64,000 nucleotides of DNA from an uncultured Chloroflexia bacterium (lineage in GTDB: Bacteria > Chloroflexota > Limnocylindria > Limnocylindrales > CSP1-4): positions 240 to 64,239 of the forward strand of contig CAWJIC010000008.1 of NCBI GenBank assembly GCA_963842755.1, read 5' to 3'. The notes under the pieces are model-generated. The model was not told where the DNA came from and ran no database searches. It saw only the letters and a program-made list of their open reading frames with translations. Positions 15,899 through 54,751 of the stretch are shown here, piece after piece (the stretch's first letter is position 1; each line of letters opens with the position of its first letter). Made by a program: the position numbers and the translations under genes.

Positions 15899-15926
15899 TT
15901 GACGCACGTTCACTCAGTGGTACTAT
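15899..15926 (+). promoter_or_regulatory. Candidate promoter: -35 TTGACG, 16-nt spacer, -10 TACTAT, giving a leaderless abiEi mRNA
   Basis: The -10 ends 7 nt before the ATG at 15934, and no Shine-Dalgarno sequence is present. Confidence 0.45.
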
Positions 15927-15933
15927 CCCGTGT

Positions 15934-16749
15934 ATGAAGCACGGATCTCGACCCCTAAGTGAAGAGCGGACCATCGCCCGGGCAACCGCATCCGTGGTCG
16001 CCAACTTGGAGATGTTCCGCAGGCGCACGGTGACGAGCGACGAAATCGCCCAGCTGATCGGGGCGCCCCTCGGGTCAGACCGGCATGAGTGGGCCGTCCG
16101 AAGTCTCGTCGCCCACGGTTGGCTCGCCCCACTGCCCATGCGCGGGACCTACGAGTTCCTTCCGGCTCAGTCCGGGCCGGATCGCGCCGGCGACCCGTTG
16201 ACCGAGGCCGCCGCCGCACTCAAGCGCTTCCCGGGCCTGCGCCTCCAGCTCGTCCTCGGGGGAGCGGCGTTCCTCGGCGGCTTCAACGAGCGGACACCGG
16301 TGCGCTACACGCTCATCGTCCCCAGGCAGGCCCCCATCCAGCGCGGACTCGCCCGGGCCTATGACCTCATCCGTGCCGCCCCTTCCCGGTTCTTCGGCGC
16401 AACGCCGCGCGACAGCGTGCCGATGTCAGGAGCGTCGCGCCTGCTCTTCGACGCAGCGCTCTGGCCCGGGCGAGCCGGGGACCTCCGGGATCGGGGCCAC
16501 TGGCTTCGCGCGGCCCTCGCCAAGGCGGACATCTCGGAGATCCTCGCCTTTGCCCAGCGGCTCGACTCGGACCGCGTGACGGCCCGGGCAGGCTACTTCG
16601 CCGAGGCCTTCGGTCGACCCGACATCGCCGCCACCTTGGCCGACCTGCACCCCAAGGCCGCCGTGCGCCTGGGCGATCCGACGGAACCGCTCCACGCCCG
16701 CGACACTCGCTTCGGCGTGCGCGACCATCTCGGCGTCGCCGGCGCATGA
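15934..16749 (+). CDS. abiEi: AbiEi-family antitoxin / transcriptional regulator (type IV TA)
   Basis: The N-terminal wHTH-like region reads TSDEIAQLIGAP..AVRSLVAHGWLAPLPMRGTYEF. The gene overlaps the AbiEii gene by 4 nt. Confidence 0.7.
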   Translation: MKHGSRPLSEERTIARATASVVANLEMFRRRTVTSDEIAQLIGAPLGSDRHEWAVRSLVAHGWLAPLPMRGTYEFLPAQSGPDRAGDPLTEAAAALKRFPGLRLQLVLGGAAFLGGFNERTPVRYTLIVPRQAPIQRGLARAYDLIRAAPSRFFGATPRDSVPMSGASRLLFDAALWPGRAGDLRDRGHWLRAALAKADISEILAFAQRLDSDRVTARAGYFAEAFGRPDIAATLADLHPKAAVRLGDPTEPLHARDTRFGVRDHLGVAGA

Positions 16750-17666
16750 TCTACGAGCGCGCCATCACCCTGCTCTCAGGACGCTACGGTGGGCGCGCCG
16801 CGCCCCAGGCCTACCTCGAGTTCGCCCAGGAGCATTTCCTCGCCTGGATGGCGGTCGAGGGGCTGTTCGACGGAGACCACCCTCTCATCTTCAAGGGCGG
16901 CACGGCACTCCGGAAGTTCAAGTTCGGACCCGCCGGTCGGTTCAGCACTGACCTCGACTTCGCCGCCGAGAGCGTCGACTACCCCGAGCACGTCCTTGAT
17001 AGCCTGGAGGAAGGCTTCTCCTTCGAGGGCGTCACCTTCCATCTGACCGACCTCGACCGCCCGGCCCTCAAAGGCACCTGGCGCGCCCAGGGAGACGGGA
17101 TCGCGGGCGAGACGATCGACGCCAAGCTCGACTTCTCGTCGCGTCCGACGCTGTATCCCCCAGAACGCCGTCCCCGCTCGGACATCCCCGGTGTGGAGCG
17201 GCGCTTCCTGGGCTTCGACCCAGTCGATCCTCCGCTGATGACCCTCCTTGAGAACGTCTCCGAGAAGCTCGCCAGGTTCCGCCGCCAGATCATCGGCCGC
17301 GACCTCTATGACCTCGCTCGGCTCGCGCCCGAGCTGCGCCCGCACCTGCCGACACTCCGCGAGGCGGTCATCTTCAAGGTCTTCTTCGACCTGGTCGAGG
17401 ACGGACAGGCCGGCGCGAAACCCTTCCACGCCGGTCCGGAATACGCCGGTCGCACGGTCCCTCAAGTCGTCGGCTTCGACGACCTCGGCGTCCTGTCCGG
17501 ACAGCCGCAGGATTGCTCCGCGTTGCTCGCCGTGATCGGGAGCACCTATGGTGCGATGGGCGAGCCGACCGGGTCGGTCGAGATCCGGCTCGGGCAGGCC
17601 AGCAAGGGTGATCTCTTCTGGGCGCAGCAGATCTACGAGAGGCGGCGCGCCGAGCTGCGCGCGTAG
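16746..17666 (+). CDS. abiEii: AbiEii/AbiGii-family nucleotidyltransferase toxin
   Basis: The FKGGTALRKF..GRFSTDLDF nucleotidyltransferase motif is present. 306 aa. Confidence 0.8.
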   Translation: MIYERAITLLSGRYGGRAAPQAYLEFAQEHFLAWMAVEGLFDGDHPLIFKGGTALRKFKFGPAGRFSTDLDFAAESVDYPEHVLDSLEEGFSFEGVTFHLTDLDRPALKGTWRAQGDGIAGETIDAKLDFSSRPTLYPPERRPRSDIPGVERRFLGFDPVDPPLMTLLENVSEKLARFRRQIIGRDLYDLARLAPELRPHLPTLREAVIFKVFFDLVEDGQAGAKPFHAGPEYAGRTVPQVVGFDDLGVLSGQPQDCSALLAVIGSTYGAMGEPTGSVEIRLGQASKGDLFWAQQIYERRRAELRA

Positions 17667-17974
17667 AGCGGCGTCATGAACGGACGGACAGACCGCCTGG
17701 TGTCTACCCCTCTCTCTGCCACCACCCGCTGCTGTGGATCGTGCGACGCCGTCGCCTCTAGCGAACCCGAACCGCCTGCATGGGGTCCCACGCACTCGGC
17801 CACGACGCCCGGATGATCGACGCGATCGAGCACCTCGACCCGGATCTTCGCCGTCGGGTGTCGGGCTGAGCGTCATTGCCCGGTGTTCGGCGCGCCGTCC
17901 GGACGACGCCTGGGCGCGGGACATTCGGCGACAATGTGGCCTCCTGATGCGTCAGACCCCTATTGGATTGACCG

Positions 17975-20528
17975 ATGCCCCGAACGACGATCGCCAATAC
18001 CGCCGCGGCACTGCTGGCCGAGCATCGCGCCCTCGCCCCGGAGGAACTCGGCCGGCTGATCGCCGCGCGAGGACTAACCCGCTCGAAGCAGCCCGCCCGG
18101 GCGGTCTCACGCGCGCTGGATGTCGATCGGCGATTCCGCCGGCTCAGCGACGGGCGGTGGGCGGTCCCCGGGCAGCTGCTGCGCGGAGTGACGCTTACCC
18201 ACCGCCTCACCGCGGGAGAAGCGACGGCCGAGGTCCTCGCCCTGACCCCGGACCTCGCCCCGCTCGTCGCGCTCGCGCCCGACGGCCTGCTGCTCGCCGA
18301 CGGACGGCCGCTCACGGTCCTGTGGGACGAGGACGCCCTCGGTGCCAGCGGCACCGACACCGACGTTGCGATCCAGGGGCCACCTGGCTGGCTGGCTGGC
18401 AGCTCGTCGGGACACCTCGTGCACGTGCGACTGACCGGCGCGCTCCTCCGTGTGGGACCCGTCCCCGAGCCGCGGGCCGAGTCCAGGCTCGCCGTCCGCC
18501 GGCTCGTCGAGGCGGCCCGGATGCGTCTCTCCGAGCAGAAGGCAGCGGACTTCCTGCTCCTGCCCCCGGCGGTCTCCCTCGACACGCTCATCCTCGATCT
18601 CCTGGCGGACGATCCCGGCCTGCTCGAGCATCCGCTGCCGCCGCTCGGCGAGGCGTTCGCAGCCGCCGGTCTCGAGGTGCACCGGAGCTTCGTGGGCCTG
18701 CCGGGAACCGACTGGGAGGGTGTCGACGAGTTCATGTCGTTCGACGGAGCCGACCTGGACGCGTCCGACGACGCCGAGGACGCCGACGACGAACGATTTG
18801 GGCGCGAGCTCAATCAGCAGATGGTCGAGGCATTCGATCTGCAGCCGGGGGAGGCCGAGGGACTCGGGATCGTGCTCGCGGCGTATGACCTCAGCCAGCG
18901 GCTCGGCGGCCTCGACAGCACCGAAACCAACGCCCGCCTCGCCCAGATGCTCGCCTGGCCCGGGATCGCCCGCGTCCTCGCCCTCAAGGCCTGGTCCGAT
19001 CCGGCCTTCGAGCCCTTCGTGGCCGCCATCGCGGCAGCCGCCATCGGCCACGATGCGGCAGGCCCGCGGTTCGTCCTCGGGGCGTGCGCGGAGGCCCGCG
19101 ACGACGTGGTTGCCGCGGAGCGCCTGTATCGGTCCGCGCTCGACGCCGAGGCGGACCACCAGCCTGCCCTCGTGGAGGTTGCCCGGTACGAGACCGACCG
19201 GGGCGACTACGCCGCGGCCGTCGGGCACCTGCGCGCGGCACGGGTCCCGGGCGACGACTCCGAACGTGCCTGGCTCGAAGGGCTCGTCCGGCCGGCGGTG
19301 CCGAAGGTCGGGCGGAACGAGCCATGCCCATGCGGTTCCGGTCGCAAGTACAAGGCGTGCCACCTGGCCGGACCCCGGGGAGATCGGATCCGTCGAGGCG
19401 GCGAAGGCGCTCCTGCACAAGCTGGACGCCTGGCTTTCGCAGCCGAACATGCAGCGCGCCGGTGATGAGCTGCTTCGGGAGATCGGAGCCCAGGTGCCGG
19501 CCAGCGTCGACGGCGCCGATCCGATGGTCGCTGACATCGTGCTGTTCGAGCGGGGCGGCCTGCGCCAGTTCCTCGACGTGCGCGGCGCCCTGCTGCCAGG
19601 GGCGGAGCGGGCGCTCGGGCGGACCTGGCTCCTGAGCCGTCGCTCGCTCCACGAGGTCCAGGCGGTGAGGCCGGGAACGAGCCTGACGCTCAGGGACCTG
19701 CGCTCCGACGGCAGCATCGTCGAGGTCGCCGACCGCTCGATCTCCGGGCAGGTCCAGCCGCTCGACCTGCTCTGCCTGCGGCTCCTGCCCGATGGCGCCG
19801 GCGGGGTCGTGGCATCGGATGGCGTCCTCGTGCCGCGGCTCCAGCGGCGACACATCCTCGACCTGTTGGACTCGGGGGACGGCCTCGACCTGCTGCACTG
19901 GATCGTGACGCCCGCTCCGTTGCCCCGGCTCAGCAACACCGAAGGCGAGCCCCTGCGGCTCATCACGGTGGCCTACCGCGTGGCCGATCCGGCCGCCGCG
20001 GCGGCCGCCCTCGGAGGGAAGCTCCGGGGCGAGGGGGACGGTCGGTTCGTCGAGATGGTCGTCCGGCATGGCCAGGAGTGGGTCCGCGGCTCGATCACGC
20101 TCGATGGCGACCGTGCGACGATCGACGCCAACTCGGGCAAGCGTGCGGCCAGGCTCGAGCGGACGCTCCTCCGGGCGGCTCCCGGCGCCCGGCTCATCCG
20201 GCGCGAAGAGCGGGGCATCGAGGAGGCATTCGACGAGGAACGCGCGAAGGGTCCCGCGGCGGAGCCGATCGACGTGGCCGCCCACCCCGAGCTGGCGCAG
20301 GCGATGGAGGAGTTCATCCGCAGGGCCGAGGTGAACTGGGTGGACGAGACGATCCCGGCCCTCGGCGGCCTCACACCACGCGAGGCCGCTGCCGACCGCG
20401 CCGCTCGCCCCGAGCTCGAGGCGCTCCTCGACGACATGGCCTGGCAGCAGCGCCGGGCCGGTGGCGGCGGGCTCATGGATCCCGCCCGGGTACGGGCTCT
20501 CCTTGGCATCCCGGAGCGGAGCCGCTGA
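17975..20528 (+). pseudogene. SEC-C-motif protein (~850 aa) split by one frameshift
   Basis: Frame A ends just after NEPCPCGSGRKYKACHLA. Frame B continues DPGEIGSVEAAKALLHKLDAWL.. through to GGLTPREAAADRAARPELEALLDDM. The switch lies within about 19361-19380 (CCCCGGGG run). Confidence 0.7.
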
Positions 20529-20606
20529 GGACCCTGGCCCAGCGTGGGCCTGTCGGCGGTGTCACCAGCGGTGTCGCCGGCGGTTGAGTCCACCGGCGAG
20601 CCGCGG

Positions 20607-20815
20607 TAGAATTGGCGTTGCCCAGATAGGGCAACAGACTCTTTCCGTTTTCGGACTGGGCATCTGATTCATTTCGGGATGGGCACCTGACTCACCCCGA
20701 TTCGACGGCCGACTGAGGCCCGCCGCCCGTTCAAAACCCGGCTCGCGAGCCCTGATTCTGGGCAACGGACTCTGGATCAGGAGATCGAAGGTTCGAATCC
20801 TTCCTCGCCAGCCAA
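20607..20815 (+). repeat. ~205-bp repeat unit, copy 1 (arm-like region plus tRNA-Gln 3' half)
   Basis: It aligns by eye at roughly 88-90% identity, with one 3-nt indel, to 26698-26902 in the same orientation. Confidence 0.9.
20770..20814 (+). other. tRNA-Gln(CUG) 3' half, anticodon loop to CCA (att-core-like fragment, not a complete tRNA)
   Basis: The geometry is canonical from the loop CTCTGGA (U33, CUG, G37) onwards: stem TCAGG, variable AGATC, T-arm GAAGG-TTCGAAT-CCTTC, acceptor CTCGCCA, discriminator G, CCA. The 5' side does not form an anticodon stem, D-arm or acceptor stem. Confidence 0.6.
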
Positions 20816-21096
20816 CACCACAAGATGTTGTGGTCCCAAGCGTCGAGTAGCCAACCGGTTGTGGTCCCCTCCCCTAACAGACGGTCCGATTATCTGCTCG
20901 TGCGCCATACACCCAATCAGGTGCCCATGATCTTCGTGTTGGGATCGTCGCGACGAGCACCTGACTCTTCCCGCAGATGGGCACCTGACTCCCGGGGTTG
21001 ATCCGCCTTGATATGGCTCTGGTCCGGCACGAACACGTGTTGATCGCGCGTAAACGGGTCGGTTGCAGGATCGACCTGGTAGAGTCAGATGCCCGG

Positions 21097-21125
21097 TTGA
21101 CTTCGCGTTGCGCTGGTGCTACATT
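21097..21125 (+). promoter_or_regulatory. Candidate promoter TTGACT-17 nt-TACATT upstream of the HTH/toxin pair
   Basis: Near-consensus hexamers with 17-nt spacing. An inverted copy of the 13-nt motif (21082-21094) abuts the -35. A GGAG sits 9 nt before the GTG at 21160. Confidence 0.5.
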
Positions 21126-21159
21126 GCCGTAGCATAAGCGCTACGGAGATTAATGACAC

Positions 21160-21582
21160 GTGCTCGACACCACCTATCACAAGCGACGGACCAACGAGCG
21201 TCTCGAGTCACCCGAATTCCGGGCCGAGTACGAGCGCACCCAGCGCGAGCTGAGACAGGTGAACGCGGTCATGCAGCAGCTGGACGATTTGCGGGTCGGA
21301 GCCGGACTGTCGAAGGCCGATCTGGCGCGCGAGATCGGCCGCAACGACGCAGTCGTCCGACGACTGTTCACGTCGCAGGTGAACCCGGAGCTTCGGACCA
21401 TCGCGGCACTCGCAGCGGCTCTCGACGCCGAGATCCGGATCGTCCGCGCCATCGCTCGCCGCGGCGCCATCGAGCACGACACACCGAGGCCTCGGGCGCC
21501 TGAGGCTGTGGGAGAATCCCATGCCCGACGGCTGGGATGTCATCTACTACCGTACAGCCGACAACCGTTGCCCCGGCGATGA
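21160..21582 (+). CDS. XRE-family HTH protein (antitoxin-like)
   Basis: The HTH region reads GAGLSKADLAREIGRNDAVVRRLFTSQVNPELRTIAALAAALDAEIRI. The gene overlaps the toxin-like gene downstream. Confidence 0.7.
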   Translation: MLDTTYHKRRTNERLESPEFRAEYERTQRELRQVNAVMQQLDDLRVGAGLSKADLAREIGRNDAVVRRLFTSQVNPELRTIAALAAALDAEIRIVRAIARRGAIEHDTPRPRAPEAVGESHARRLGCHLLPYSRQPLPRR

Positions 21583-21964
21583 GTTCCTCGACGGCTGTCC
21601 CCTGAAAGTGAGCGCCCAGCTGGTCGCGATCCTCGACGATGTCGCCGAGGCCCCACCACCGCGATATTCCGGGGGCGGCCGGTGGGAGGCGATGCACGGC
21701 ACGATGGGCGGATTCTACGAAGTCCGCGCGCAGGGTCCCGGACGTGAGCAGTTCCGACTCTTTTGCATCCTCGAGAACGGGACTCCCGCGGAGCTCGCGA
21801 GGCGTGGACTCGCGCGGCCAGCGGTCGCCGTCATCACCGGTCTGCGCAAGCCCTGGATGACGACGTTCGCCGAGGCCGACTATCGGTCGGTCCGTGAACT
21901 CGGCGACGAGCATCAGCCCAATTCCCGCGCAGGATCAAGGAGTAGACGCCGCCACCAGTGGTGA
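21521..21964 (+). CDS. RelE/ParE-superfamily toxin (HigB / Gp49-like)
   Basis: WDVIYYRTADNRCPGDEFLD..GGFYEVRAQGPGREQFRLFCILENG matches the Gp49/HigB-type pattern. A GGGAGA Shine-Dalgarno sequence is present. Confidence 0.7.
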   Translation: MPDGWDVIYYRTADNRCPGDEFLDGCPLKVSAQLVAILDDVAEAPPPRYSGGGRWEAMHGTMGGFYEVRAQGPGREQFRLFCILENGTPAELARRGLARPAVAVITGLRKPWMTTFAEADYRSVRELGDEHQPNSRAGSRSRRRHQW

Positions 21965-22347
21965 CACCAGTGGACGGTCGCGATGTTTGCTCCAGGCCCG
22001 CAGTGGATCGGCCGACCGCGTTGGGTCTCCTGACCACGTATTAGGCGCCTCAACCGCGCCGGCGGCATGACTCTCTAGCAACCCAGTCCCAGGTCACGAC
22101 CGAGCAGTTTCGGAGAAGCCGCCGCCGCGGCGGCTCCCTAGCATGAGGGTCGTCCCCATCAAGACTCGCAGAGGAGGAAACCTGCAAAGAAGGACACGCA
22201 GAAGTCCGCCAAGAGCACCACCGCGATCGACAAGACGTCCGAGGGATTCACGGACGAGGAACGAGCCGCGATGAAGGAGCGCGCCCAAGAGCTGAAGGCG
22301 GCGCGCGCCGCGGCCCGCGCACGGACAAGGCGGACGGGGAAAGCGCC

Positions 22348-22662
22348 GTGCTCGCGAAGATCGCCGAGATGCCGGAACCGGATCGCGCCATGGGCGAGCG
22401 GCTCCATGCGATCATCAAAGCCAGCGCGCCAGCCCTCTCGCCGAGACCCTGGTACGGGATGCCCGCGTATGCCAAGGACGGCAAGGTCGTCTGCTTCTTC
22501 CAAAGCGCGCAGAAGTTCAAGACGAGGTACGCGACGTTCGGCTTCAGCGACGAGGCGAACCTCGACGAAGGCGCCATGTGGCCGACCGCCTTCGCGCTGA
22601 AGGAGTTGACCGCCGCCGACGAGGCAAGGATCGGCGCGCTCGTGAAGAAAGCGGTGAGCTGA
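22348..22662 (+). CDS. DUF1801 (YdhG-like) protein; the N-terminal extension is in another frame, so probably frameshifted
   Basis: [55 protein letters not shown]. Upstream in a different frame reads [23 protein letters not shown], which normally precedes this domain. Confidence 0.6.
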
Positions 22663-23037
22663 GGACTGAGCTCGCCACTGGGCCCCGCCCTAGGCGGGAC
22701 GGCCTGAGCGGTCCGGCCTGGCTTCTAGTACGACCAAATGGACGTCAAACCCACGACACGTAGTCATGGGAGCCGAGTCGCCCAAGCCTGATACTCGCCT
22801 AACTACGTATCAGGCGCGGGCGGGCGAGTGTTGGTGACCGCGTTTCCACCGCGATCAGGGCGGCGGCCTCGCGATCGGTATGGCGCGCCCGACTCCTGTC
22901 GGGCGCGCCACGAACATGCGTTCTATATCTGGCCTGGGTCGTTCGATTGTGCGTGCCAACGCGGCGAGGCCTTCGCCCGGCCAAATTCGAACGAACCGCC
23001 TGCCGGATTCGGGGATGCTCCGCCTATCGTCTCGGAT

Positions 23038-23445
23038 ATGTCGAACCTGGCCCTCAGCGCCGCCACTGCCCGGGTTCCCCAGGGGACCGTCCGGCTCGTG
23101 GCGGCGCTGACGGTCCTTTCCTGGTTCGGCATGATCATCCACGACCGGATCTCGCTCCCCGAGCTGAGCCTTCTGTCGCCGGACGTCGTCCTCCCGACGG
23201 TCGTGTCCGTCGCGCTCGTCGCCGCGTGGTGGGCCTGGCCCGGCCGGCTGTCCTTCGGCCTGTTGTTCGGCTGGACGATGCTCCACTTCGCGGTCGGCGG
23301 GATCCTCTCTGTCCTACCGTTGCCGTCCCTGCCGTTCGTCCCGGAGCAGACGATCGAGCATTACGTCGCTCACGCCCTGTACGCCGGATGTCAGTTGCCA
23401 CTGCTCTTCGTTCTCTTTCGCTATCGCCCATTGCGAGCCAGGTGA
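23038..23445 (+). CDS. Integral membrane protein, unknown family
   Basis: MSNLALSAATA.. followed by four hydrophobic segments. GC3 is high. Confidence 0.55.
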   Translation: MSNLALSAATARVPQGTVRLVAALTVLSWFGMIIHDRISLPELSLLSPDVVLPTVVSVALVAAWWAWPGRLSFGLLFGWTMLHFAVGGILSVLPLPSLPFVPEQTIEHYVAHALYAGCQLPLLFVLFRYRPLRAR

Positions 23446-23533
23446 GTTCCACGGAATCGAGGAGCGTGCCCGCGTTCTGTATCGGCCGGCCGGCGATCGC
23501 ATGAGCGACGTCAGGGTGACGTTCGATCAGTGG

Positions 23534-24197
23534 TCAAGCCAGAATTGGCGGACCAGCTTGGATGGTCGCGGCCGGGTTCTCAAAGGGCACGAGGTAGGCC
23601 GCGATCGCGGCCGGGTCCTGTGCACGGGTCTTTGGCGACAGTAGGGTGTCGACCACGCCCTTGCGGATGAAGCCGGCCGGGCCGAGCAAGCGATAGGCGA
23701 TGAGCAGGCCGATCGTACGAGTCCGCTCCACCAGACTTAATGACTGGACCGGGGTGCCCAGCGTCACAAGCGTTCTGCATCGCTCAGGCCATCGGGCTGC
23801 GAAGACGAGCCCGATGGCGCCTCCCCGGGCGTTGCCTACCCAGTCCACGGGCTCGCTGAGACCAACGCTGTCCAGCACCGATCCGGCAGCCTCGGCGCAG
23901 TCGTCGAGGGTGTAGCTCCGATCAGGGGCCCACTGGCCCCATGGCCCGGGCCGGTGATGATGACAAGGCGCCGCTGCGTTGCCAGGTCGTTCTCGACGCG
24001 CCCCCATGACCCTCGTCAACGAAGATGCTGTGCCATAGCACCGCGGGTGGGCCCTCCCCGAGCAGCCGCACGGCCAGCGGACCGAACTTCGTCTCTACGG
24101 TGCGTCGGGCATCCACGACGATGACCTCCTCGTTCCGAGATCGACGGACCGACGCCGGGGCACTCCGATCGGCTGGGCACGTAACCTCGGCGCTCAT
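23534..24197 (-). pseudogene. Alpha/beta-hydrolase-fold gene with two frameshifts
   Basis: Three frames concatenate to ..AVLWHSIFVDE / SWGRVENDLATQRRLVIITGPGHGASGP / DRSYTLDDCAEAAGSVLDSVGLSEPVDWVGNARGGAIGLVFAA... The nucleophile-elbow position reads GNARG (Ala instead of Ser). Confidence 0.65.
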
Positions 24198-24943
24198 GCC
24201 TTGAGGTCTCGCACCGGTGAAGCGAGTGACAGCGTGTCGACCATGGCGCCCGCCTCGTCTCGCCACATCAGGATCCCAAGTGCGAGGGCCCACAGGGTCA
24301 GCAGCAAGGACGAGGCGAAGAAGATGGTCTCGGCCGCCTGGACCTCTCCGCTGGCGGCGATCTGAAGCAGGGCGGCGACCGCAGATCCGGCAGCACCGAC
24401 GATGGCGATCCAGCCGAACCAGCCTGGGTAGTGCCGACCGGCGATGACGGCGCCGCCGAAGCAGGCGAAGGCCACCCCGAAGAACGCCAGCATGCCGATG
24501 CTCCAGATGCCGAAGTCGACCTCCTTGACCGCGACCGAGATACGCAGCGCAAGGGCCCCGTCCGTCCCGGTCGCACTGACCGATGCGTCCGACAGCGCCT
24601 TCATGACGAATCCGTCGATCGCACTGCTGACGGTGACGACGGCACCCCCCAACACGGCTGCCACGAGGCCCAACCGGGCCAGCGGCTCGCCGGGCGTGCC
24701 GGTCATCTCTTCGGCCAGGCCGACGAGGCCGCCGATGACCAAAAGGATGGCGATGATGATCGCCAGGTGGATGGCGACCCAGGCGCCGTTCCCGGCGATC
24801 GCCTGGACGGTCGCGGCACCAGCGAGATCGGCGGTGTGGGGATGCAGACCATTCCCGACCAGGCCGATGATGGCGCCGGAGATGAACAGCGCGCCGAACA
24901 GCCTGTGCCCGTGAAGCTGCTGGGATCGTAGGCGTGCGGACAT
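24194..24943 (-). CDS. Polytopic membrane protein (DUF4386-like; family call tentative)
   Basis: MSARLRSQQLHGHRLFGALFISGAIIGLVGNGLHPH.. followed by repeated hydrophobic helices. Confidence 0.6.
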   Translation of the reverse strand: MSARLRSQQLHGHRLFGALFISGAIIGLVGNGLHPHTADLAGAATVQAIAGNGAWVAIHLAIIIAILLVIGGLVGLAEEMTGTPGEPLARLGLVAAVLGGAVVTVSSAIDGFVMKALSDASVSATGTDGALALRISVAVKEVDFGIWSIGMLAFFGVAFACFGGAVIAGRHYPGWFGWIAIVGAAGSAVAALLQIAASGEVQAAETIFFASSLLLTLWALALGILMWRDEAGAMVDTLSLASPVRDLKA

Positions 24944-25084
24944 CCGGTCCTCCTCTAGCGCATCCGGTCGGCCCATTCCCGACATCGCGTCGACCGTAGT
25001 GGTCCGGGTCCGAATCCGGCAGGCGATTCGTTCGATTCGCGCGGTATGACGCGCCCGGCCTCTAGCCGCCGACGGTCGTAGGCC

Positions 25085-25702
25085 TCAGTGTCGAGTCATC
25101 GCTTCGTCGAAACGGGCCAATTCGACGCCGACCCTGGCGAGGTGCACGCGAAGCAGATCGATGGTGGTGGCACGAATGGACACCGGATCGGCAGCGAGAC
25201 CAGTCGTCGGGCCGGCGACGATGACGGCGAGGACTCGCCGCGCCAGCTCCCGGGCGTCCTGCGGCTCGAGCCCCGGGGCTGCTGCGGCGATGACGCGCCC
25301 GAAGATGGCCTCCCCCTGCCCGAAGAACCGGGCGAGCCCGGGTTGGTCCAGCGGGCGCCCCATCTGGCGCGCGAGGTCGATCGCCAGGAGATACGTGGGC
25401 AACACGTCGATCACGAGATCCACGCTCATGCGGAGTTGGACGAGCGGGTCGATGTCGGGATCGATACGCGTCGAGTCCCAATCGAGCGCGTCATCGTCGA
25501 TCAGGAAGGTGGCGAATGCCGCCTTGGACGGGAAGTAGTGATACAGGGCGGCCGGGCTCAGATGGCAGGCGTGGGCCAGCGCCTTGATCGTCGCGCCGCG
25601 ATAGCCATACGTGCGGAAGACGGGTGCGGCCAGGCGGAAGAGCTCGTGTCGGCGGCCCCGGATCCCGGTCTGGAGGGCCGGGTCGAACGGGAGCCACGTC
25701 AC
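25085..25702 (-). CDS. TetR-family transcriptional regulator
   Basis: The HTH region reads RRHELFRLAAPVFRTYGYRGATIKALAHACHLSPAALYHYFPSK. The GTG start at 25702 was chosen because the HTH must sit near the N-terminus. Confidence 0.8.
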   Translation of the reverse strand: MTWLPFDPALQTGIRGRRHELFRLAAPVFRTYGYRGATIKALAHACHLSPAALYHYFPSKAAFATFLIDDDALDWDSTRIDPDIDPLVQLRMSVDLVIDVLPTYLLAIDLARQMGRPLDQPGLARFFGQGEAIFGRVIAAAAPGLEPQDARELARRVLAVIVAGPTTGLAADPVSIRATTIDLLRVHLARVGVELARFDEAMTRH

Positions 25703-25824
25703 GATGCGGCGCTCGGGATCGCAGGCGCTGGCAAGGGTATACGGCCAAGCATCGGCCACAGTGTGCGCTGCGAGCCCACTTGCTCGCGGATACGCTGGCG
25801 AATGCTCGACCGGTGCGCTGCCTG

Positions 25825-26469
25825 ATGCCGCCGATCTGGTTCTACGACCTGATGTACCGCTGGCGCGCACCGTGGGAGATGGGGGCTCGTGCTGAGCTGA
25901 TTGCGCTCGTGCAGGCCGGCCGGCTCACGCCCGAACGGCTCGCTCCCGGACGCGCGGTCGACCTGGGCTGCGGGGCCGGAGCCAACGCCGTCTTCCTGGC
26001 CCAGGCTGGCTTCGACGTCGTCGGGGTCGACTTCTCTTCGGTCGCCCTCAGGAAGGCGCGACGCGCATCGATCGCCGCCAATGTGTCCGAGCGGGTCCAC
26101 CTCGTCCGCGGCGATCTGACAGCACCGGACCTGCCCGGTGTCGACGGCCCGTTCGACCTGCTCGTCGACTACGGCACGCTCGACGACCTTGCATCATCGG
26201 ATCGACGGAAGATGGCGGCGACGATCGTCCGACTGGCCCGTCCGGGCTCGATCTTCGTCATGTACGCCTTCTATGCGGCCCGGGCGGACCTGCCGCGGTT
26301 CAGCCTGACCGGGCCGTCCAGGGTCACTCTAGCGCTCGAGCCAGGCGAGGAGGTGGACCTGTTCGGCCGTGCCTTCGAGATCGAGCGGCTGCCCGAGCCT
26401 CGGCCCGACCAGCTGACCGCGGCCTTCGTCATGACGCGCCGGGACGACGGGGCAACCGAAACAGGCTGA
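25825..26469 (+). CDS. Class I SAM-dependent methyltransferase
   Basis: Motif I reads VDLGCGAGANAVFLAQAGFDVVGVDFS. The gene is divergent from the TetR gene. Confidence 0.8.
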   Translation: MPPIWFYDLMYRWRAPWEMGARAELIALVQAGRLTPERLAPGRAVDLGCGAGANAVFLAQAGFDVVGVDFSSVALRKARRASIAANVSERVHLVRGDLTAPDLPGVDGPFDLLVDYGTLDDLASSDRRKMAATIVRLARPGSIFVMYAFYAARADLPRFSLTGPSRVTLALEPGEEVDLFGRAFEIERLPEPRPDQLTAAFVMTRRDDGATETG

Positions 26470-26475
26470 CGCCAA

Positions 26476-26724
26476 TCAGGCGCTTTCCGCCGATTTCACG
26501 AGCCAGTCCTCCCGACCATGGACGGGAATCTGGATATACGTAGCATCCGCGCGGTTGAATCCAGTCGGGCGCGCGCCATCGACAGTCAGCGGTCGACCGC
26601 CCTTAGGCAGCGGTGGGACCGATACCGAATCCGGGAGCGCAAAGGCGAAGGCCCGGTGTGGAGTCTCGGCGATCGCGATGCATCGCTCGAGATGGTCTAG
26701 AATTGGCTCGACCAGATAGGGCAT
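26476..26724 (-). CDS. Hypothetical 82-aa protein
   Basis: Open frame only. Its first ~8 codons lie inside repeat copy 2. Confidence 0.3.
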   Translation of the reverse strand: MPYLVEPILDHLERCIAIAETPHRAFAFALPDSVSVPPLPKGGRPLTVDGARPTGFNRADATYIQIPVHGREDWLVKSAESA

Positions 26725-26902
26725 CAGACTCTTTCCGTTTTCGGAATGGGCTTCTGACTCATTTCGGGATGGGCATCTGACTCACCCCGATTCGGCGGTC
26801 GACTGAGGCCCGCCGCACGCTCAAAACCCGGCTCGCGAGGCCTGATTCGTTACGCACTCTGGATCAGGAGATCGAAGGTTCGAATCCTTCCTCGCCAGCC
26901 AA
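26698..26902 (+). repeat. ~205-bp repeat unit, copy 2 (arm-like region plus tRNA-Gln 3' half)
   Basis: Direct repeat of 20607-20815, offset 6087 bp at the tRNA-like core. Confidence 0.9.
26857..26901 (+). other. tRNA-Gln(CUG) 3' half (second copy)
   Basis: This 45-nt core is identical to 20770-20814. Upstream sequence does not complete a cloverleaf. Confidence 0.6.
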
Positions 26903-28318: not shown

Positions 28319-29901
28319 ATGCCTGACGGAGTCCGCCTGCGCCTGCGCCGAGCTGCGATCGCCCTCGTTTTCGTCGTGGGTGTGGTGGCGACGGCGGCGA
28401 CGAGCCCGGCGATGACGTTCATCGACATCGCGCCGGCGGGCGCCACGTTCCACCTCGATCCGGGGCATCCCGCGGCACTGTCGCGGTTCGTCGTCAGGCT
28501 GAATCCCGAGGCGACCTCGAGCTATTCCTATCTCAGCGTCTACCTGCTCGTCGACGCGGTGCGGGCGGCTGGTGGCAGCGTCGCCGCGTCTGGCGCCGTC
28601 GGCGCAGCCCGGTTCATCGTCGCCTCGGCCGCGCCCGGTGCACTGCCGTCACCCATCGCTTCGCCGCTGCCCGGCGTCGAGCCCGTCCCAACACGATGGC
28701 AGGCAGAGGTGTCCCCGCCAGCCCAGGTGTCCCTGCCAATCGACTGTGGTGGGGCCGTCGGGCCGTGCGAGCGGGGGTTCTGGCTGATCGCCGAGCTCGC
28801 GGACCCGGCAGCGGGAGCCATCGATGCCCACTGGTCCGTCGGCGGTTCCCTCAGCTACACCGGCAACGCCTGGCCCTCGGGCGCGAGGGCGAGCGTCGAG
28901 ATCGGCGCCCCGACTCTCCTGGCGAGCCCAGTCCCACAGCTCGCCGCCTCGACGGAGACCGAGACGGTGGCCTTCGGGCCGGACCGACCCGCGGCTGCCC
29001 GCGAGGTCGAGGTCACGTGTCGGGGCCGCCGCGATCCCGCAGGATGGGAGTCCGGTCGGAGCCCTCTCGGTCGACCTCGTCCGTCGTCCGGGCAGCGGTG
29101 GGAGCCCCGACAGGCCTCCCGTGGTCCAGATCTACCCGATCGACGGACCGGGCGCGGTGAGCCCGTTTCCCGGCGCGCCGCCGCCGTCGCCGGCGCCGCC
29201 CAACCTGGATCCCTTCGCCGGCTGCCAACCCGGCGCGACCTGCACTCGCCGGTTCCTCGTGACGATCGCGTGGACCGGCGACTCCGGGGAAGAGGAAGCA
29301 TTCGACTGGAAGCTGAACGTCCGTCGCGTCGACCTCGTTCGCGTGTGGTCGACGCCCGCTGAGCTGTCGGCCCGGGTGGCGCGCCGCTTCGACGTGGCGT
29401 CGGGCTCGAATCCGTCGACCGTCCACCTCGAGGGCGACGCCAGCGCGGTCGCGTTCGATGCTCCGCCGCAGGTCCACGTGGCGCTTGCGACCCGCACGAC
29501 CGCGACCGACCCACTTGCCCCGCTGCTGCCCGTTCCTGGCGTCATGACCTACCGGGCGCACGTCCTCGAGCCGCGACCGTCCGCGTCCGGTGAATGGCAC
29601 GAGAGCGGACGTCGTCGTCACCTCACAAATCCCCAATTCCGGAACGAGGCCGATCTTCCGGAGCTTCATCGGCGGCGATGTCAGTGTCGTCGCGAACCCG
29701 ATGGCAAACCCGACGGCGGGCTGCCACGTCGGCGAGGCCTGCCCGGATCTCACGATCGCCACCATCGTCAGCCCGAGGGAGCAGGGTGCGCCGCTGCCGA
29801 CGGTCCGCTTCCACTGGAGCCTCGACCTGACGATCTACTCATTCACCGATGTCCCGATCTCACTCTCGGCGGAGGATCTCTCACCGAAGGCTGGTAATTG
29901 A
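28319..29901 (+). pseudogene. Signal-anchored or secreted protein (~525 aa) with two frameshifts
   Basis: The signal-like start is MPDGVRLRLRRAAIALVFVVGVVATAATSPA. The sequence continues through three frames, with breaks near 29020 and 29585, and ends ..HWSLDLTIYSFTDVPISLSAEDLSPKAGN. Confidence 0.55.
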
Positions 29902-30263
29902 CGACGGCACTGGACCTCGCCCTGCCAATCGGGCAGATCGCCGAATTCGTGGCTCGCGTCCGCGAGCCGGTCGAGGCCCTCGCCCCGGTGTCCCCGACCG
30001 TCCTCTACGGCCACCTGCTGGAGGGCAATCTCCACATCAACGTCCTCGGGCCGACGCCGGACGACCAGGCGGTCGATGACGCGGTCCTGCGATTGACCGT
30101 CGAGATGGGCGGCTCGATCAGCGCCGAGCACGGGATCAGCGTCCCCAAGGCTGGCTGGCTCGCGCTGGACCGCTCGCCGGCCGACCTGGCCGCGATGCGC
30201 GCGTTCAAGCCCGCGTTCGACCCGACTGCGAGCTTGAACGCGGCTGTGCTTCGCCGGACGTGA
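29898..30263 (+). pseudogene. C-terminal fragment of an FAD-linked oxidase (GlcD / D-lactate dehydrogenase family)
   Basis: LYGHLLEGNLHINVLG and SISAEHGISVPKAGWL are C-terminal FAD-oxidase motifs. No N-terminal FAD-binding domain is present in the window. Confidence 0.75.
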
Positions 30264-30925: not shown

Positions 30926-31147
30926 ATGAGCAGTACCTGGCAGTCTGAGGGTGGCGGGGGTGGCGACCAGCCACCTGCGCCCCCGCCTCCGCCGCCCCCG
31001 CCCCCGCCACCGCCGCCTCCGCCGCCCCCGCCTCCGCCACCGCCGCCTCCGCCCCCGCCCGACCAAATCACGAAGGCCAATGAAAGCGTGAGGTCCGTCG
31101 GGGGCGGCGATGGTCCTCCGCCCCCTCCGCCACCCGAACGCGATTGA
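30926..31147 (+). CDS. 73-aa protein with a 27-residue uninterrupted polyproline run (plus a second P7 run)
   Basis: An AAGGAGG (30911-30917) sits 8 nt before the ATG. The stop overlaps the TTG start of the next gene. All four Pro codons are used. Confidence 0.55.
   Translation: MSSTWQSEGGGGGDQPPAPPPPPPPPPPPPPPPPPPPPPPPPPPPDQITKANESVRSVGGGDGPPPPPPPERD
30986..31060 (+). repeat. 30-nt tandem repeat, about 2.5 units, inside the polyproline tract
   Basis: Units: CCTCCGCCGCCCCCGCCCCCGCCACCGCCG / CCTCCGCCGCCCCCGCCTCCGCCACCGCCG / CCTCCGCCCCCGCCC. Confidence 0.8.
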
Positions 31148-33108: not shown

Positions 33109-33200
33109 CATTATGCCGAGCCGCGGATTATGCCGACCAGGGGTGTCGAACCGGCCGCTGCGTGAGTGGGTCGCCCCCGTGAGGTCGGCATAATCAGAGC
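33109..33200. repeat. RIT left inverted repeat (92 bp)
   Basis: Exact reverse complement of 36361-36452. It contains TTATGCCGA twice in direct and once in inverted orientation. Confidence 0.95.
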
Positions 33201-34183
33201 CCGTCGAGGAAGGCGAGGAGCGCGTCGGACGGTCGATAGCGTCCGGGCTTCGCGTCGGGCGGCGACGTCCTCGCGATCGCCCGCTCCTTGAGGGCGAGGT
33301 CCGCGTGCAGGTAGATCTGGGTCGTGTCGACGTGCTCGTGACCGAGCCAGAGGGCGATGACCGACGTATCGACACCGGCCTGGAGGAGGCGCATCGCCGC
33401 GGTGTGCCGCAGGACGTGGGGGCTGATCCGCTTGGCCCGCAGCGACGGACAGGCCGTGGCCGCCGAAGCCGCGTACCTGGTGATCCGACGCTCGACGGCG
33501 TCCCGGCTGAGCGGGGTGCCGGTGCTGGTCGGGAACAACGGGTCGACCCGTTCACCGGCTCGCTCGGCGAGCCAGACGCGCAGGACGGCGACTGTGGCCC
33601 GGGTGAGCGGCGTGATCCGCTCCTTGCGTCCCTTGCCGAGACAGCTCACATGGGCGCCCGTGCCGAGATGGACGTCGGCACAGCGGAGGCCGATCAACTC
33701 GGACACGCGCAGCCCGGTCTGGACCGCGAGCAGCAGCAGGGCGTGATCGCGCCGCCCGGTCCAGGTCGTTCGGTCCGGGACGGCAAGGAGCGCCTCGACC
33801 TCCCGATCGGTGAGGAAGGTGACCAAGCTGCGGGCGAAGCGCTTGGGGGGAATGGCCAGCACCCGGCCGATCGACTCGGCGTGCTCGGGATGGCGCAGCG
33901 CGGCATACCGGAACAGCGAGCGGATCGCCGCCAGGCGGGCATTGCGGGTCCGGACGCCGTTGCCCCGGTGGCGCTCGAGATGGTCGAGGAAGGCCCCAAC
34001 GAGGGGTGCGTCGATCTCGGCGACATCGAGGCGCGAGGGCGCGGTCCCGGTGCGATCCGCGGCGAACGCGAGGAGCAGGCGGAGCGTGTCGCGATAGGCA
34101 GCGATCGTCTGCGGGCTCGCTTGGCGCTGCCGGATGAGCCGGTCGGTGAAGAAGGCCTGGAGGGTCGGCGCGAGGGCGCTCAC
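33194..34183 (-). CDS. ritC: Tyrosine recombinase RitC
   Basis: 329 aa. GLRVSEL, HVLRHTAA and LGHEHVDTTQIYLH (R..HxxR..Y) are present. GTGA overlap with ritB. The stop lies inside the left inverted repeat. Confidence 0.85.
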   Translation of the reverse strand: MSALAPTLQAFFTDRLIRQRQASPQTIAAYRDTLRLLLAFAADRTGTAPSRLDVAEIDAPLVGAFLDHLERHRGNGVRTRNARLAAIRSLFRYAALRHPEHAESIGRVLAIPPKRFARSLVTFLTDREVEALLAVPDRTTWTGRRDHALLLLAVQTGLRVSELIGLRCADVHLGTGAHVSCLGKGRKERITPLTRATVAVLRVWLAERAGERVDPLFPTSTGTPLSRDAVERRITRYAASAATACPSLRAKRISPHVLRHTAAMRLLQAGVDTSVIALWLGHEHVDTTQIYLHADLALKERAIARTSPPDAKPGRYRPSDALLAFLDGL

Positions 34184-35106
34184 GGCTGGTCTCCGAGATG
34201 GCGCTCGAGAAGATCACCAGCGGCCGCGAGCAGCTCGGGTGCGGCCGAGAGATACCAGTACGTCGCCGCGGGGCTGACGTGGCCGAGGTACGTCGAGAGG
34301 ATCGGCAGCCGCGCGCCGACGTCGAGGTCGGCCCGATAGGCGTCGAGGACGGTGCGGACGGCGAACGTGTGGCGGAGGTCGTGGAGCCGCGGCCGACAGC
34401 CGGCGGACCGGGGTCGCAGGCCCGCATGACGGACGAGCTTGAGGAACGTCCGGTTCACGACGCAGTACCGGAGGCGGGTGCCCGCGCTCGACGAGAAGAG
34501 CGCGGCCGTGAGGATCCGAGGACGGGGCCGGTCGTCCCGGGCGAGATAGCGGTGGAGGGCGGTGACGGTCGTCGGATGGAGCGGCACCAGGCGCGACTTG
34601 CCGAACTTGCTCATTCGGATCGTGAGCGTCCCCTCGACAGGATCGAGATCCCCCCGATCGAGCCGGATCGCCTCGCCGACGCGGAGCCCGGCCACGGCGA
34701 GCAGGCCGACGAGCGTCGCGTACGTCGCCGCCCCGAACGGCGTCCGCAGGATGCAGGCGGCTCCCATGAGCGCCGCGACCTCGGCATCGCTGTACAGGTA
34801 CGGGGTCGCCCGCTGGCCTCGATCCCGAAGCAGCTCGGCCGGGATGAGCTCGTGGGCGGGATTGAGCGCGTGGAGATGGGCGGCGAAGCCGCGCACGACC
34901 GTGAGCCGCATGGCGAGCCAGCGCGGACCGCCATTCGCGGGCAGCGTCGCCCAGGCAAGCGCGGCCTCGACCGTGACCGTGGCGCTGCCCCTCGCGTCGA
35001 GGAAGGCGGTGAACTGGGCGAGCAGCCTGCCGGCCCGCTCGAGCCGGAAGCCGAGCGAGCGGCGGAGGCGGAGGTAGTCGGCGAGGGCCGGATCGAGGCG
35101 GTTCAT
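34180..35106 (-). CDS. ritB: Tyrosine recombinase RitB
   Basis: MNRLDPALADYLRLRRSLG.., GLRVGEAIRL, LHDLRHTFA and LGHVSPAATYWYL are present. ATGA overlap with ritA. Confidence 0.85.
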   Translation of the reverse strand: MNRLDPALADYLRLRRSLGFRLERAGRLLAQFTAFLDARGSATVTVEAALAWATLPANGGPRWLAMRLTVVRGFAAHLHALNPAHELIPAELLRDRGQRATPYLYSDAEVAALMGAACILRTPFGAATYATLVGLLAVAGLRVGEAIRLDRGDLDPVEGTLTIRMSKFGKSRLVPLHPTTVTALHRYLARDDRPRPRILTAALFSSSAGTRLRYCVVNRTFLKLVRHAGLRPRSAGCRPRLHDLRHTFAVRTVLDAYRADLDVGARLPILSTYLGHVSPAATYWYLSAAPELLAAAGDLLERHLGDQP

Positions 35107-36314
35107 GCGGCACCGCCCGGCCAGGGTCGGGCGAGGTCGCGAAGCGCACGCTCGTCCACCTTCGCGTAGATCGCGGTGGTCTGGGCCCGCCGATGGCGGA
35201 GTACCTGGCCGATCTCCGCGAGCGAGCCGCCGGCCCGGAGCATCTCGGTCGCCGCGGTGTGCCGGAGCCGGTGAGCGTGGACGAGCCCGAGGCCCGCTCG
35301 GCGGGCGGCGTCGCCCACGATCTGGCTCACCCCGGTCGACGACAGGCCCTTGTGCGGCGCCTTCACGCGGATGAACACCGCCCGGTCCAGGGCACTCGCA
35401 GGACGGCCGGCGCGGAGATACGCCACGATCGCCTCGCCGACGTCGGGCGGCAGCGGCAGCCGCTCGGCCCGGTTGCCCTTGCCGGAGACGACCAGCTCGC
35501 CCGCCCGCCAGTCGATGGCATCGAGCGAAAACCCCGCCACCTCGCCCGCCCGCAGCCCGAGCCGGACGAGGAGGGTCAAGATGGCGAAGTCCCGGCAACC
35601 CGCCACGCGTCGCCGATCGCACGAGGCGAGCAGGCGCTCCACCTCGGCTCGTGCGAGCCCGTGCGGCAGCGAGGCCAGCCGCCAAGCGGCTACCGGGGGC
35701 ACGCTCCCGGCGAGCGAGCGTGGGAGGACCCCCTCGACATGGAGGAAGCCAAGCAGGGATCGGAGGGCGGTCACGGTCAGCTTGGCTGAGCCGCGTGCCT
35801 GAGCCGGGCAGCGGGCCACGACGAACGCGGTGATGTCCGCGACCGTCAGCGCCTCGAGCGCGAGCCCATCGGACGTGGCCCGGCTGGCCAGGAACGGCCG
35901 GACCGCGGCGAGATACCCGCAGGCCGTGGTCGGCGCCAGGCCCCGCTCGACGGTCAGGAAGCGGCGGTACCGCGTGAGGAGCCGATCAAGCGGCGCGTCG
36001 GACTCCGGCTCGGGTGCCTCGGGGACCACTCCGAGCCGGCGCAGGTACTCGAGCGGCGGCTGGATCGCCCGGGTCGAGGCGTACCTCGTATGCCCGGCGG
36101 CTCGTCGAGCGGCGAGGAAGCGGTCGGCCTGGGCCGCTGACAGCGCTCCCGGCGCGAGCCCTTCGGCTTCGAGCCAGGCGCTCAGGTTCGCGACCAGCCG
36201 AAGCTGGAGGATCGCTCCCGAGGCCGTATATCCGACGCGACCGAGCTCGGCGGCGTAGCCGGCCACGCACGGTTGAAGCGGGCCGCTGACGCGGACCCGA
36301 AGCGGATCATGCAC
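35103..36314 (-). CDS. ritA: Tyrosine recombinase RitA
   Basis: 403 aa. GLRAGEVAG, HRLRHTAATEM and LRHRRAQTTAIYAKV are present. Confidence 0.85.
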   Translation of the reverse strand: MHDPLRVRVSGPLQPCVAGYAAELGRVGYTASGAILQLRLVANLSAWLEAEGLAPGALSAAQADRFLAARRAAGHTRYASTRAIQPPLEYLRRLGVVPEAPEPESDAPLDRLLTRYRRFLTVERGLAPTTACGYLAAVRPFLASRATSDGLALEALTVADITAFVVARCPAQARGSAKLTVTALRSLLGFLHVEGVLPRSLAGSVPPVAAWRLASLPHGLARAEVERLLASCDRRRVAGCRDFAILTLLVRLGLRAGEVAGFSLDAIDWRAGELVVSGKGNRAERLPLPPDVGEAIVAYLRAGRPASALDRAVFIRVKAPHKGLSSTGVSQIVGDAARRAGLGLVHAHRLRHTAATEMLRAGGSLAEIGQVLRHRRAQTTAIYAKVDERALRDLARPWPGGAA

Positions 36315-36360
36315 GATGCTCTCCTCTTTCGATGATGGAGAGGAGAGCGTCCATCAAGCG

Positions 36361-54615: not shown

Positions 54616-54751
54616 CTCACGGGCAAGTTGCCGAATGAGCCCATCATGGTCGCCGATATCGATGTCGGCGCTCAGATGAGGTGCGCACCGTGCGCGATCG
54701 TGATGATCTCGCCCCTTGCCGCAGTACCGCTACGGCTGCGACCGGGTCCCG
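54613..54751 (-). promoter_or_regulatory. 139-nt conserved 5' leader, copy B (upstream of the GlcG-like gene)
   Basis: See 46570-46708. It lies between the LysR stop and the GlcG-like start. Confidence 0.6.

Follow-up and report, generated by a model that had tools for sequence, protein, structure and literature searches.

What is a repeat of about 205 nt that ends in the 3′ half of a tRNA gene, and what do two copies of it signify when they bracket 6.1 kb of other genes? This question is raised by a 64,000-nt stretch of contig CAWJIC010000008.1 (assembly GCA_963842755.1; the stretch as a whole is called the window below) from an uncultured Chloroflexia bacterium of the Limnocylindria, in which two direct repeat units, copy 1 (20606-20815) and copy 2 (26697-26902), both terminate in the 3′ portion of tRNA-Gln(CUG). 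Very probably, the units are the recombination junctions of site-specific integrative elements, all of one family with tRNA-Gln(CUG) as its target in Candidatus Limnocylindria, copy 2 being an attR site, copy 1 a composite junction, and the segment between them (island 2) an island of the cis-mobilizable type.

The initial annotation, made from the sequence alone, had placed the direct repeats at 20607-20815 and 26698-26902, and pairwise alignment bears them out, with a mean column identity of 92% instead of the 88-90% reported; two ungapped blocks are 93% (20622-20758 against 26712-26848) and 98% identical (20765-20815 against 26852-26902). The identical tail is real as well, and extends over 47 nt rather than 45: 20769-20815 and 26856-26902, on the plus strand like the rest of both units, are the core, or identity segment, running from the anticodon loop to G73 and CCA, so that a displaced 3′ tRNA fragment stands as a direct repeat at the island end. 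Its geometry was described correctly in both units (loop CTCTGGA, stem strand TCAGG, T arm GAAGG-TTCGAAT-CCTTC, acceptor strand CTCGCCA, then G and CCA), as was the 8-bp helix CCTGATTC/GGATCAGG, whose loop measures 15 nt in copy 1 and 12 nt in copy 2. The 32-nt string of T arm, acceptor strand and CCA occurs exactly twice in the 64 kb, where no occurrence is expected. What stood only in part was the statement that the upstream sequence cannot form the 5′ half of a tRNA: the D arm is indeed missing, but CCTGA supplies the 5′ anticodon-stem strand and TCGCGAG (20743-20749; 26833-26839) pairs at six of seven positions with the acceptor 3′ strand, and therefore each unit is a D-arm-less remnant of a whole tRNA and not a bare 3′ half. 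More specifically, the degenerate 5′ half covers 20743-20768 in copy 1 (with CCTGATTC at 20751-20758 and a motif-like GGGCAACGGACTC at 20760-20772) and 26833-26855 in copy 2 (with CCTGATTC at 26841-26848, the loop diverging from 26849).

Neither unit qualifies as a tRNA gene, since ARAGORN called no tRNA and no transfer-messenger RNA (tmRNA) over the whole window, which also agrees with the earlier remark that it holds no intact tRNA-Gln, and a permissive search with RF00005 gave copy 1 a sub-threshold 22.3 bits (cut-off 29) and copy 2 no match. An identity as tmRNA or as another curated structured RNA was rejected along with it, because a scan of 4227 Rfam families returned nothing at gathering score for the units either; such a covariance-model match had been named beforehand as evidence that would count against attachment sites, and that reading stands unrefuted on this point.

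Upstream of each degenerate tRNA half lies what we call the P arm or leader, at 20606-20742 in copy 1 and 26697-26832 in copy 2 (both recognized by a leader hidden Markov model, HMM), the left edge of the similarity coinciding with a -10-like TAGAAT (20607-20612; 26698-26703). The arms are marked by a 13-nt motif, GGGCAYCTGAYTC, which copies the tRNA's own D-stem/anticodon-stem sequence and is found nine times in the window against 0.32 expected, all copies being clustered at the two units. Three to four copies stand to the left of each core, at 20629-20641 (weak), 20658-20670 and 20681-20693 in copy 1 and at 26719-26731, 26748-26760 and 26771-26783 in copy 2. To the right of copy 1 there are four more in both orientations, and to the right of copy 2 there are none. 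The DNA following copy 1 is a second kind of arm (type-B P′ arm, 20816-21130, plus strand, described by a 330-nt HMM), which begins with a hairpin directly after the CCA (ACCACAAGATGTTGTGGT, 20817-20834), and carries four motif copies (20914-20926 minus, 20955-20967 plus, 20979-20991 plus and 21082-21094 minus), the last of them abutted by a promoter-like TTGACT-17-TACATT (21097-21125), with no integrase gene downstream. Within 21082-21125, the inverted motif copy GAGTCAGATGCCC ends 2 nt before the -35 box of this promoter-like site, which precedes the first cargo gene, a regulator with a helix-turn-helix (HTH) domain; the same layout recurs ahead of AbiEi in a related metagenome locus (L129), and integrase binding there might control the first cargo promoter.

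The units are not peculiar to this contig. A scan of one genome per species with the pattern motif, 80 to 110 nt of any sequence, T loop returned 33 loci (numbered L below, as are the later ones), 29 of which are clearly related over the full unit, almost all of them in Ca. Limnocylindria or in metagenome-assembled genomes of Chloroflexota; scanning metagenomes with a two-motif pattern added at least 120 loci, from soil, peat, groundwater and sediment. Among the matches listed, more than 80 metagenome loci have the entire unit, and the HMM found about 105 leaders among the loci listed, the two described here being the only ones in the window. Altogether, more than 100 related loci are seen in Ca. 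Limnocylindria genomes and in soil, peat and groundwater metagenomes. Scans of viral collections gave one match in one case and none in the other, so that the element is no common phage, and conjugation genes were seen nowhere in the family.

These loci fall into a few recurrent arrangements. In attL loci, an intact tRNA-Gln(CUG) with unrelated upstream DNA and no leader is followed, about 100 nt downstream, by a tyrosine integrase gene; in at least seven cases (L123, L066, L105, L138, L065, L067 and L002) a leaderless intact tRNA-Gln precedes a P′ arm with an integrase gene or its remnant. The commonest kind, attR, has a leader and a decayed or intact tRNA 5′ half, then the tRNA 3′ half, with unrelated flanks; an intact 5′ half takes the place of the degenerate one in L003, L006, L009 and L018. 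About 11 of the listed loci are attP-like, with the integrase gene on the same strand 85 to 190 nt after the leader-bearing unit. The leader thus goes with the element and not with the host tRNA. A complete integrated island is seen in L002, where a host gene and tRNA-Gln are followed by a truncated P′ arm, 4.1 kb of cargo without an integrase gene, and a leader with its unit (attL to attR), and L027 has the identical architecture on a tRNA-Arg(TCG). In L114 (7518-7740), a T-arm/acceptor end of the tRNA-Arg type, CCCTCCGGGCGCGCCA, stands 18 nt ahead of a tRNA-Gln acceptor end, CTCGCCAGCCA, an arrangement that suggests nested or successive recombination of elements with different tRNA targets.

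Where the strands are exchanged can be read from junctions that do not restore the usual tRNA. At off-target junctions (examples are L037, L043, L045, L055, L130, L112, L046, L048, L148 and L149) the leader and 5′ part give way to DNA that is not a tRNA gene, the switch falling at CTCTGGA(TCAGG) or directly behind it. Chimeric tRNAs tell the same story from within the gene: L063 and L097 combine a type-2 5′ half (acceptor TGGCGCG) with a type-1 3′ half (T stem GAAGG, acceptor CTCGCCA), and L129 and L091 a decayed variant 5′ part with a type-2 tRNA-Gln 3′ half. Since the two alleles share only the 17-nt anticodon stem-loop, strand exchange happens there, and in copy 1 the breakpoints of junction variants and chimeras delimit the crossover region CTCTGGATCAGG at 20770-20781 on the plus strand. 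A third core copy, CACTCTGGATCAGG, lies in intergenic DNA at 56189-56202 (plus strand; 13 of 14 positions match, identical to copy 2); it is followed by CGCGC, much as in the off-target metagenome junctions GGATCAGG|CGC..., has neither leader nor T arm, and could be a secondary attB or a chance match.

Taken as a scheme, the element's attP would consist of the 150-nt P arm, an intact or decayed copy of tRNA-Gln and then the P′ arm, and a tyrosine integrase would exchange strands in the anticodon stem-loop CCTGA-CTCTGGA-TCAGG, the 7-nt anticodon loop presumably serving as the overlap region between the inverted stem arms. Integration would leave an attL made of the host tRNA 5′ half, the core and P′, and an attR made of the P arm, the element's own (pseudo) 5′ half, the core with the host tRNA 3′ end, and host DNA. 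Copy 2 would then be an attR, with P arm, pseudo 5′ half, core and motif-free DNA in succession, and copy 1 a tandem composite of the P arm of one island (island 1, to its left), the core and the P′ arm of island 2. The earlier proposal of tandem attR-like junctions of related elements is therefore supported by the related loci, except that copy 1 is a P-core-P′ composite and no plain attR.

The integrase of the family is an ordinary XerC/D-like two-domain protein (PF00589 and PF02899), whose ATG stands 8 nt past an AGGAGG. Its first 25 codons hold three W-A-P-D-S repeats encoded by the arm motif GGGCACCTGACTC (L123, 1736-2668, a protein of 310 aa; L105; L102), which places the P′ arm sites inside the 5′ coding region of the gene; lying there, just past a strong Shine-Dalgarno sequence, they may allow the integrase to regulate its own synthesis. 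The protein would bind GGGCAYCTGACTC, and this motif matches the tRNA's own AGGCGCCTGACTC, so that arm and core sites would be of one type. The arm motif of the islands in the window is common to elements that carry the dedicated integrase.

No tyrosine recombinase gene is found between 1 and 30 kb of the window with Pfam, NCBIfam or tblastn with the family integrase. Further right, on the minus strand, three adjacent genes (35106-36353, 34216-35100 and 33197-34213) each encode a tyrosine recombinase with a PF00589 domain, and the trio resembles a ‘recombinase in trio’ (RIT) element. At 62670-63110 (minus strand), a 147-aa open reading frame (ORF) covers the C-terminal two-thirds of a phage-integrase catalytic domain (profile positions 66-170 of 172), and is probably a truncated recombinase.

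Island 2 extends from about 20782 to 26868, with a core and the type-B P′ arm at its left end and a P arm and core at its right end, and the DNA between the two copies is unrelated cargo and not a duplicated segment. As gene calling from third-position GC (GC3) frame plots was too noisy at 68% GC, long ORFs were instead searched against Pfam; the cargo (21160-26469) comprises, on the plus strand, an HTH_31 regulator (21160-21582), a 147-aa protein without family match (21521-21964), a DUF1801 protein (22348-22662) and a putative membrane protein, hydrophobic by eye and without family match (22828-23445); on the minus strand, an alpha/beta hydrolase gene split across two frames (23534-24293), a DUF4386 protein (24194-24985) and a TetR regulator (25085-25870); and, again on the plus strand, an S-adenosylmethionine (SAM) methyltransferase (about 25852-26469). 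Of the gene content proposed initially, the HTH protein, TetR and the methyltransferase hold, whereas the ‘RelE-like’ partner has no profile support. The absence of an integrase was judged correctly: profile searches and tblastn agree on it, and among all ORFs of island 2 no integration or transfer gene was found with Pfam and NCBIfam or, for the integrase, with tblastn. Window DNA at 22087-22743, with the DUF1801 gene, is 92% identical to a stretch of L016 that adjoins a similar arm there; when proteins flanking the units were compared by tblastn with the first 33 loci, DUF1801 was the sole match and no synteny was seen.

The type-B P′ arm is also present in L029, L091/L129 and L050/L140, where the adjoining cargo differs from case to case and includes no integrase gene. 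Small islands that have these units at their ends and encode no integrase are a recurrent form (island 2 of the window, L091/L129, L050/L140, L040 and L002), and the conservation of a 330-nt arm over at least four islands with unrelated cargo suggests a maintained lineage that is mobilized in trans. Judging by their sequence, the islands may still be mobilizable, those without an integrase presumably needing one in trans, or else excision together with a neighbour, as in the accretion scheme for cis-mobilizable elements (PMC5704250).

The DNA to the left of copy 1 appears, from comparison with related loci, to be another island of this type, now devoid of its left attachment site. Island 1 has the copy-1 P arm as its right end, and its cargo (15900-20605, plus strand, by Pfam) consists of an AbiE promoter at about 15900, AbiEi (15934-16749), AbiEii (16746-17666), a SEC-C protein (17975-19465) and a protein without assignment (about 19410-20528). 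The AbiEi-AbiEii-SEC-C block (window 15909-20743) recurs at 81-92% identity in L091 and L129, where leader, unit and type-B P′ arm adjoin its left side and a leader its right side; the tRNA 3′ half there is that of the other allele. The similarity of the window to these loci stops at 15909, at the AbiE promoter, and nothing att-like is found in the window to the left of about 15900, and so island 1 has lost its left junction here. At the borders of the repeats, the presence/absence difference that the initial annotation had looked to is therefore indicated at family level, in L091/L129 on a different tRNA-Gln allele, and no case comes from within the species. The AbiEi/AbiEii genes (15934-17666) form a toxin-antitoxin (abortive infection) pair whose 90%-identity clusters have 24-25 members from many metagenome contigs; the pair is found in att-flanked islands (L091/L129) but also alone in unrelated neighbourhoods (L155-L158), and these solitary pairs are uninformative as to the island. 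Metabolic genes and two transposases lie further left, and an exact look-up of a 407-aa PALP protein, with which the contig might have been extended leftward, gave no match.

The units might be read in other ways, and the strongest material for doing so comes from the P arm itself. Copy 1 can form four hairpins from inverted repeats (20617-20623/20629-20635, 20643-20647/20652-20656, 20674-20680/20694-20700 and 20703-20710/20717-20725), a promoter-like match is found for copy 1, and a G-TAGAMT -10 box sits at the exact outer 5′ edge of the similarity in nearly all subfamilies. In a structure-blind alignment of 82 non-redundant leaders, 72.9% of the cells in the four hairpins are paired against 29-49% with slid partners, double changes number 189 against 16-75, and the covariation score of 0.24 (0.04-0.10 with slid partners) was reached by none of 500 shuffles; the signal is partly due to subfamily structure, which also dominated the mutual information between leader columns and made that measure unusable as a covariation test. 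For hairpin 2 together with the inner pairs of hairpin 1, the ratio of G.U to A.C is 54 to 1, the acceptor-like pairing holds at six of seven positions in two subfamilies with different mismatches, and leader sequence occurs in contigs of all four metatranscriptomes examined. On these grounds the 205-nt unit could be regarded as a gene for a structured non-coding RNA, with its own promoter, four hairpins and a CCA-ending tRNA-like module processed by RNase P, and the repeats as paralogous copies. We consider this unlikely, as the evidence for recombination (breakpoints, chimeras, integrase adjacency) applies in full, native tRNA-Gln genes have no leader, motif copies in both orientations lie outside the unit, and no Rfam family matches. 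The RNA evidence is itself uneven: the metatranscriptome contigs run on upstream of the putative start site and hence give no evidence for a transcription start, the overall count is 125 G.U against 168 A.C with no strand bias in hairpins 3 and 4, single-sequence folding z-scores are a modest -1.7 to -1.95, and swapping the flanks of hairpin 3 between variants costs little (-5.7 against -6.4 kcal/mol), which means that true covariation at this hairpin is weak. A functional RNA, or a folded-DNA form of the P arm, is possible on this evidence. A bolder version of the junction reading, which we hold only tentatively, would have the P arm transcribed as a structured leader (comprising a promoter of its own, four hairpins, three to four repeats of the 13-nt target sequence and a tRNA-like processing module) that acts as an integration-state switch for the integrase gene; a more speculative role would be that of a partner in recombination, as RNA or as folded DNA. 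In parallel, the type-B islands would be a maintained cassette lineage that uses the integrase of another element and builds arrays of defence genes and regulators behind tRNA-Gln. In the most economical version of such a scheme, which draws on the geometry of the element, the excised or tandem (attP) form would place the promoter-bearing leader and tRNA-like module directly upstream of the integrase gene, integration would leave that gene behind the host tRNA and a hairpin, and the P arm could thereby couple integrase expression to the state of recombination.

The same inverted repeats, compensated and without a clear bias towards the transcribed strand, could also indicate that the arms act as folded single-stranded DNA, as integron attC sites and the CTX-phage attP do, and that the array behind tRNA-Gln is a cassette system whose one integrase lies at its head. 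The recurrence of small integrase-less islands with the same units would fit, as would the position of the integrase gene, where there is one, directly after tRNA-Gln or a leader-bearing unit; against it, the arms are conserved in sequence and not in structure alone, the islands are multigene and some have promoter-like sequences of their own, and the integrase is of the common XerC/D-like build, so that we give this version a very low probability. A further alternative is that the units are ordinary pseudogenes, that is, duplicates of a native tRNA-Gln that decayed together with a shared promoter and leader after segmental duplication. The leader does precede an intact tRNA-Gln in five loci (L003, L006, L009, L018 and L021) and the 5′ part of the unit resembles a decayed tRNA 5′ half, but the tRNA-Gln genes of attL loci have unrelated DNA upstream and no leader, the leader adjoins various tRNA alleles as well as DNA without a tRNA, an integrase gene follows many units, and the copies enclose unrelated cargo; the explanation is largely refuted, and we attach next to no credence to it. 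Several other identities were also considered and set aside: T-box, retron, bridge RNA and tmRNA (no matching feature or adjacent gene), an integron cassette array (rejected in view of 3-6 kb multigene islands with promoter-like sites, 200-550 bp junctions conserved in sequence, and XerC/D-like integrase domains), and an integrative mobile element exploiting host XerCD at dif (IMEX; rejected as the target is the tRNA-Gln anticodon stem-loop and the motif is shared with elements that have a dedicated integrase).

Recombination junctions thus remain our preferred reading of the units, and some observations weigh against it. Neither an intact tRNA-Gln nor a cognate integrase is present in the window, where tblastn matched at best the recombinases at 33-36 kb, which are only 30-36% identical to the tRNA-Gln family integrase; because the source contig spans 64,507 nt only and the remainder of the array is out of view, a search cannot reach the intact tRNA or a helper integrase. 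Related-strain contigs from DNA runs are fragmented and do not cross the junction at 26902, and no presence/absence polymorphism within the species was obtained from them. Finally, an arm that merely binds protein has no need of a conserved -10 box and four compensated hairpins, and contigs with the leader occur in metatranscriptomes.

Other features lie elsewhere in the window. At the contig start (plus-strand ORFs at 5-778, 631-1440 and 1531-2685) there is an IS4/IS5-type DDE transposase (DUF4096, DDE_Tnp_1), and after it comes a transposase with an rve_3 integrase core, which has a degenerate partial paralogue just upstream (repeats 975-1149 against 2122-2295). About 3 kb to the right of copy 2, a 121-aa ORF (29898-30263, plus strand) has a match confined to the final 115 positions of the FAD-linked oxidase C-terminal domain and appears to be the remnant of a truncated gene, and at 30970-31059 there is a GCC-rich tandem repeat of a 15-nt unit (GCCNCCGCCGCCCCC-like) with at least four overlapping copies. 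A 300-bp repeat with 100% identity (45206-45505 and 49657-49956) and a 139-bp repeat with 96% identity (46570-46708 and 54613-54751) lie in a minus-strand run of ORFs of similar size, and look like paralogous operons or recent gene conversion.

If the units are what we take them to be, this is the first description of a possible route for the movement of gene cargo in Ca. Limnocylindria, an abundant uncultured lineage of soil, peat and groundwater. The vehicle would comprise a family of tyrosine integrases specific for tRNA-Gln and, alongside it, small islands that have no integrase, retain both arms and accumulate in tandem, and the cargo seen so far includes AbiE abortive-infection genes, regulators and methyltransferases. 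As the arm sites copy the core and encode the W-A-P-D-S repeats, the att anatomy is unusually legible and offers a convenient model of arm and core recognition, and the structured, promoter-bearing P arm, if functional, would be a new case of control of an integrase by its integration state. For annotation, the consequence is that such units should be named att sites and not pseudo-tRNAs.

How does this family compare with systems already described? An att-side regulatory sequence that is linked to the integrase gene in one recombination state only is familiar from the sib retroregulation of phage lambda and from the joint-dependent transcription of Tn916. The lambda structure works from the 3′ end of the int mRNA, whereas the P arm would be at the 5′ end. 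The intS gene of KplE1 is reported to be controlled from within attL (PMC2951348). The likeness to all three, that the P arm lies upstream of the integrase gene only in the attP or tandem configuration, is at present purely hypothetical.

Integration into tRNA genes by tyrosine integrases is typical of actinomycete elements such as pSAM2 and SLP1. Genomic islands of this kind in tRNA and tmRNA genes have been catalogued by Islander (PMC4383910). The tRNA-Gln family shares with them the tRNA target, an identity segment beginning at the anticodon loop and reaching the 3′ end, regeneration of the tRNA on one side with a displaced 3′ fragment on the other, and an integrase gene adjoining the tRNA. 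It differs in that its attP has a whole, often decayed, tRNA copy and a 150-nt arm starting from a -10 box, that its arm sites repeat the core-type sequence of the tRNA, and that the islands in the window have no integrase and the window no intact tRNA (one is present in the relatives L002, L123, L066 and L105). Cis-mobilizable elements (CIMEs) and their accretion in tandem provide a second comparison: as characterized in PMC5704250 (with Pavlovic 2004 and Bellanger 2011 cited there), they have no integration or transfer genes, keep both attL and attR, and form tandem series with related elements at a tRNA gene's 3′ end. By sequence, island 2 keeps both sites too, with four motif copies on the left and three on the right. 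CIMEs are usually seen as one-off products of decay, however, whereas the type-B arm of the tRNA-Gln family is conserved across at least four islands. A third comparison is with the ssrA islands of Dehalococcoides, also Chloroflexota, in which tandem islands lie downstream of one small-RNA gene with direct repeats of its 3′ end, and some of which have no integration module and were proposed to be cis-mobilizable (PMC3146451). These depend on a CcrB-like serine recombinase, a 20-bp repeat and the T-loop of the tmRNA (PMC3146451), whereas the tRNA-Gln family has a tyrosine integrase, a 47-nt repeat, long arms and the anticodon loop. Set beside these systems, the islands are ordinary in kind, being tandem islands in a tRNA gene, and belong to a large, apparently undescribed family of an uncultured phylum, with an att anatomy that is unusual in some respects.

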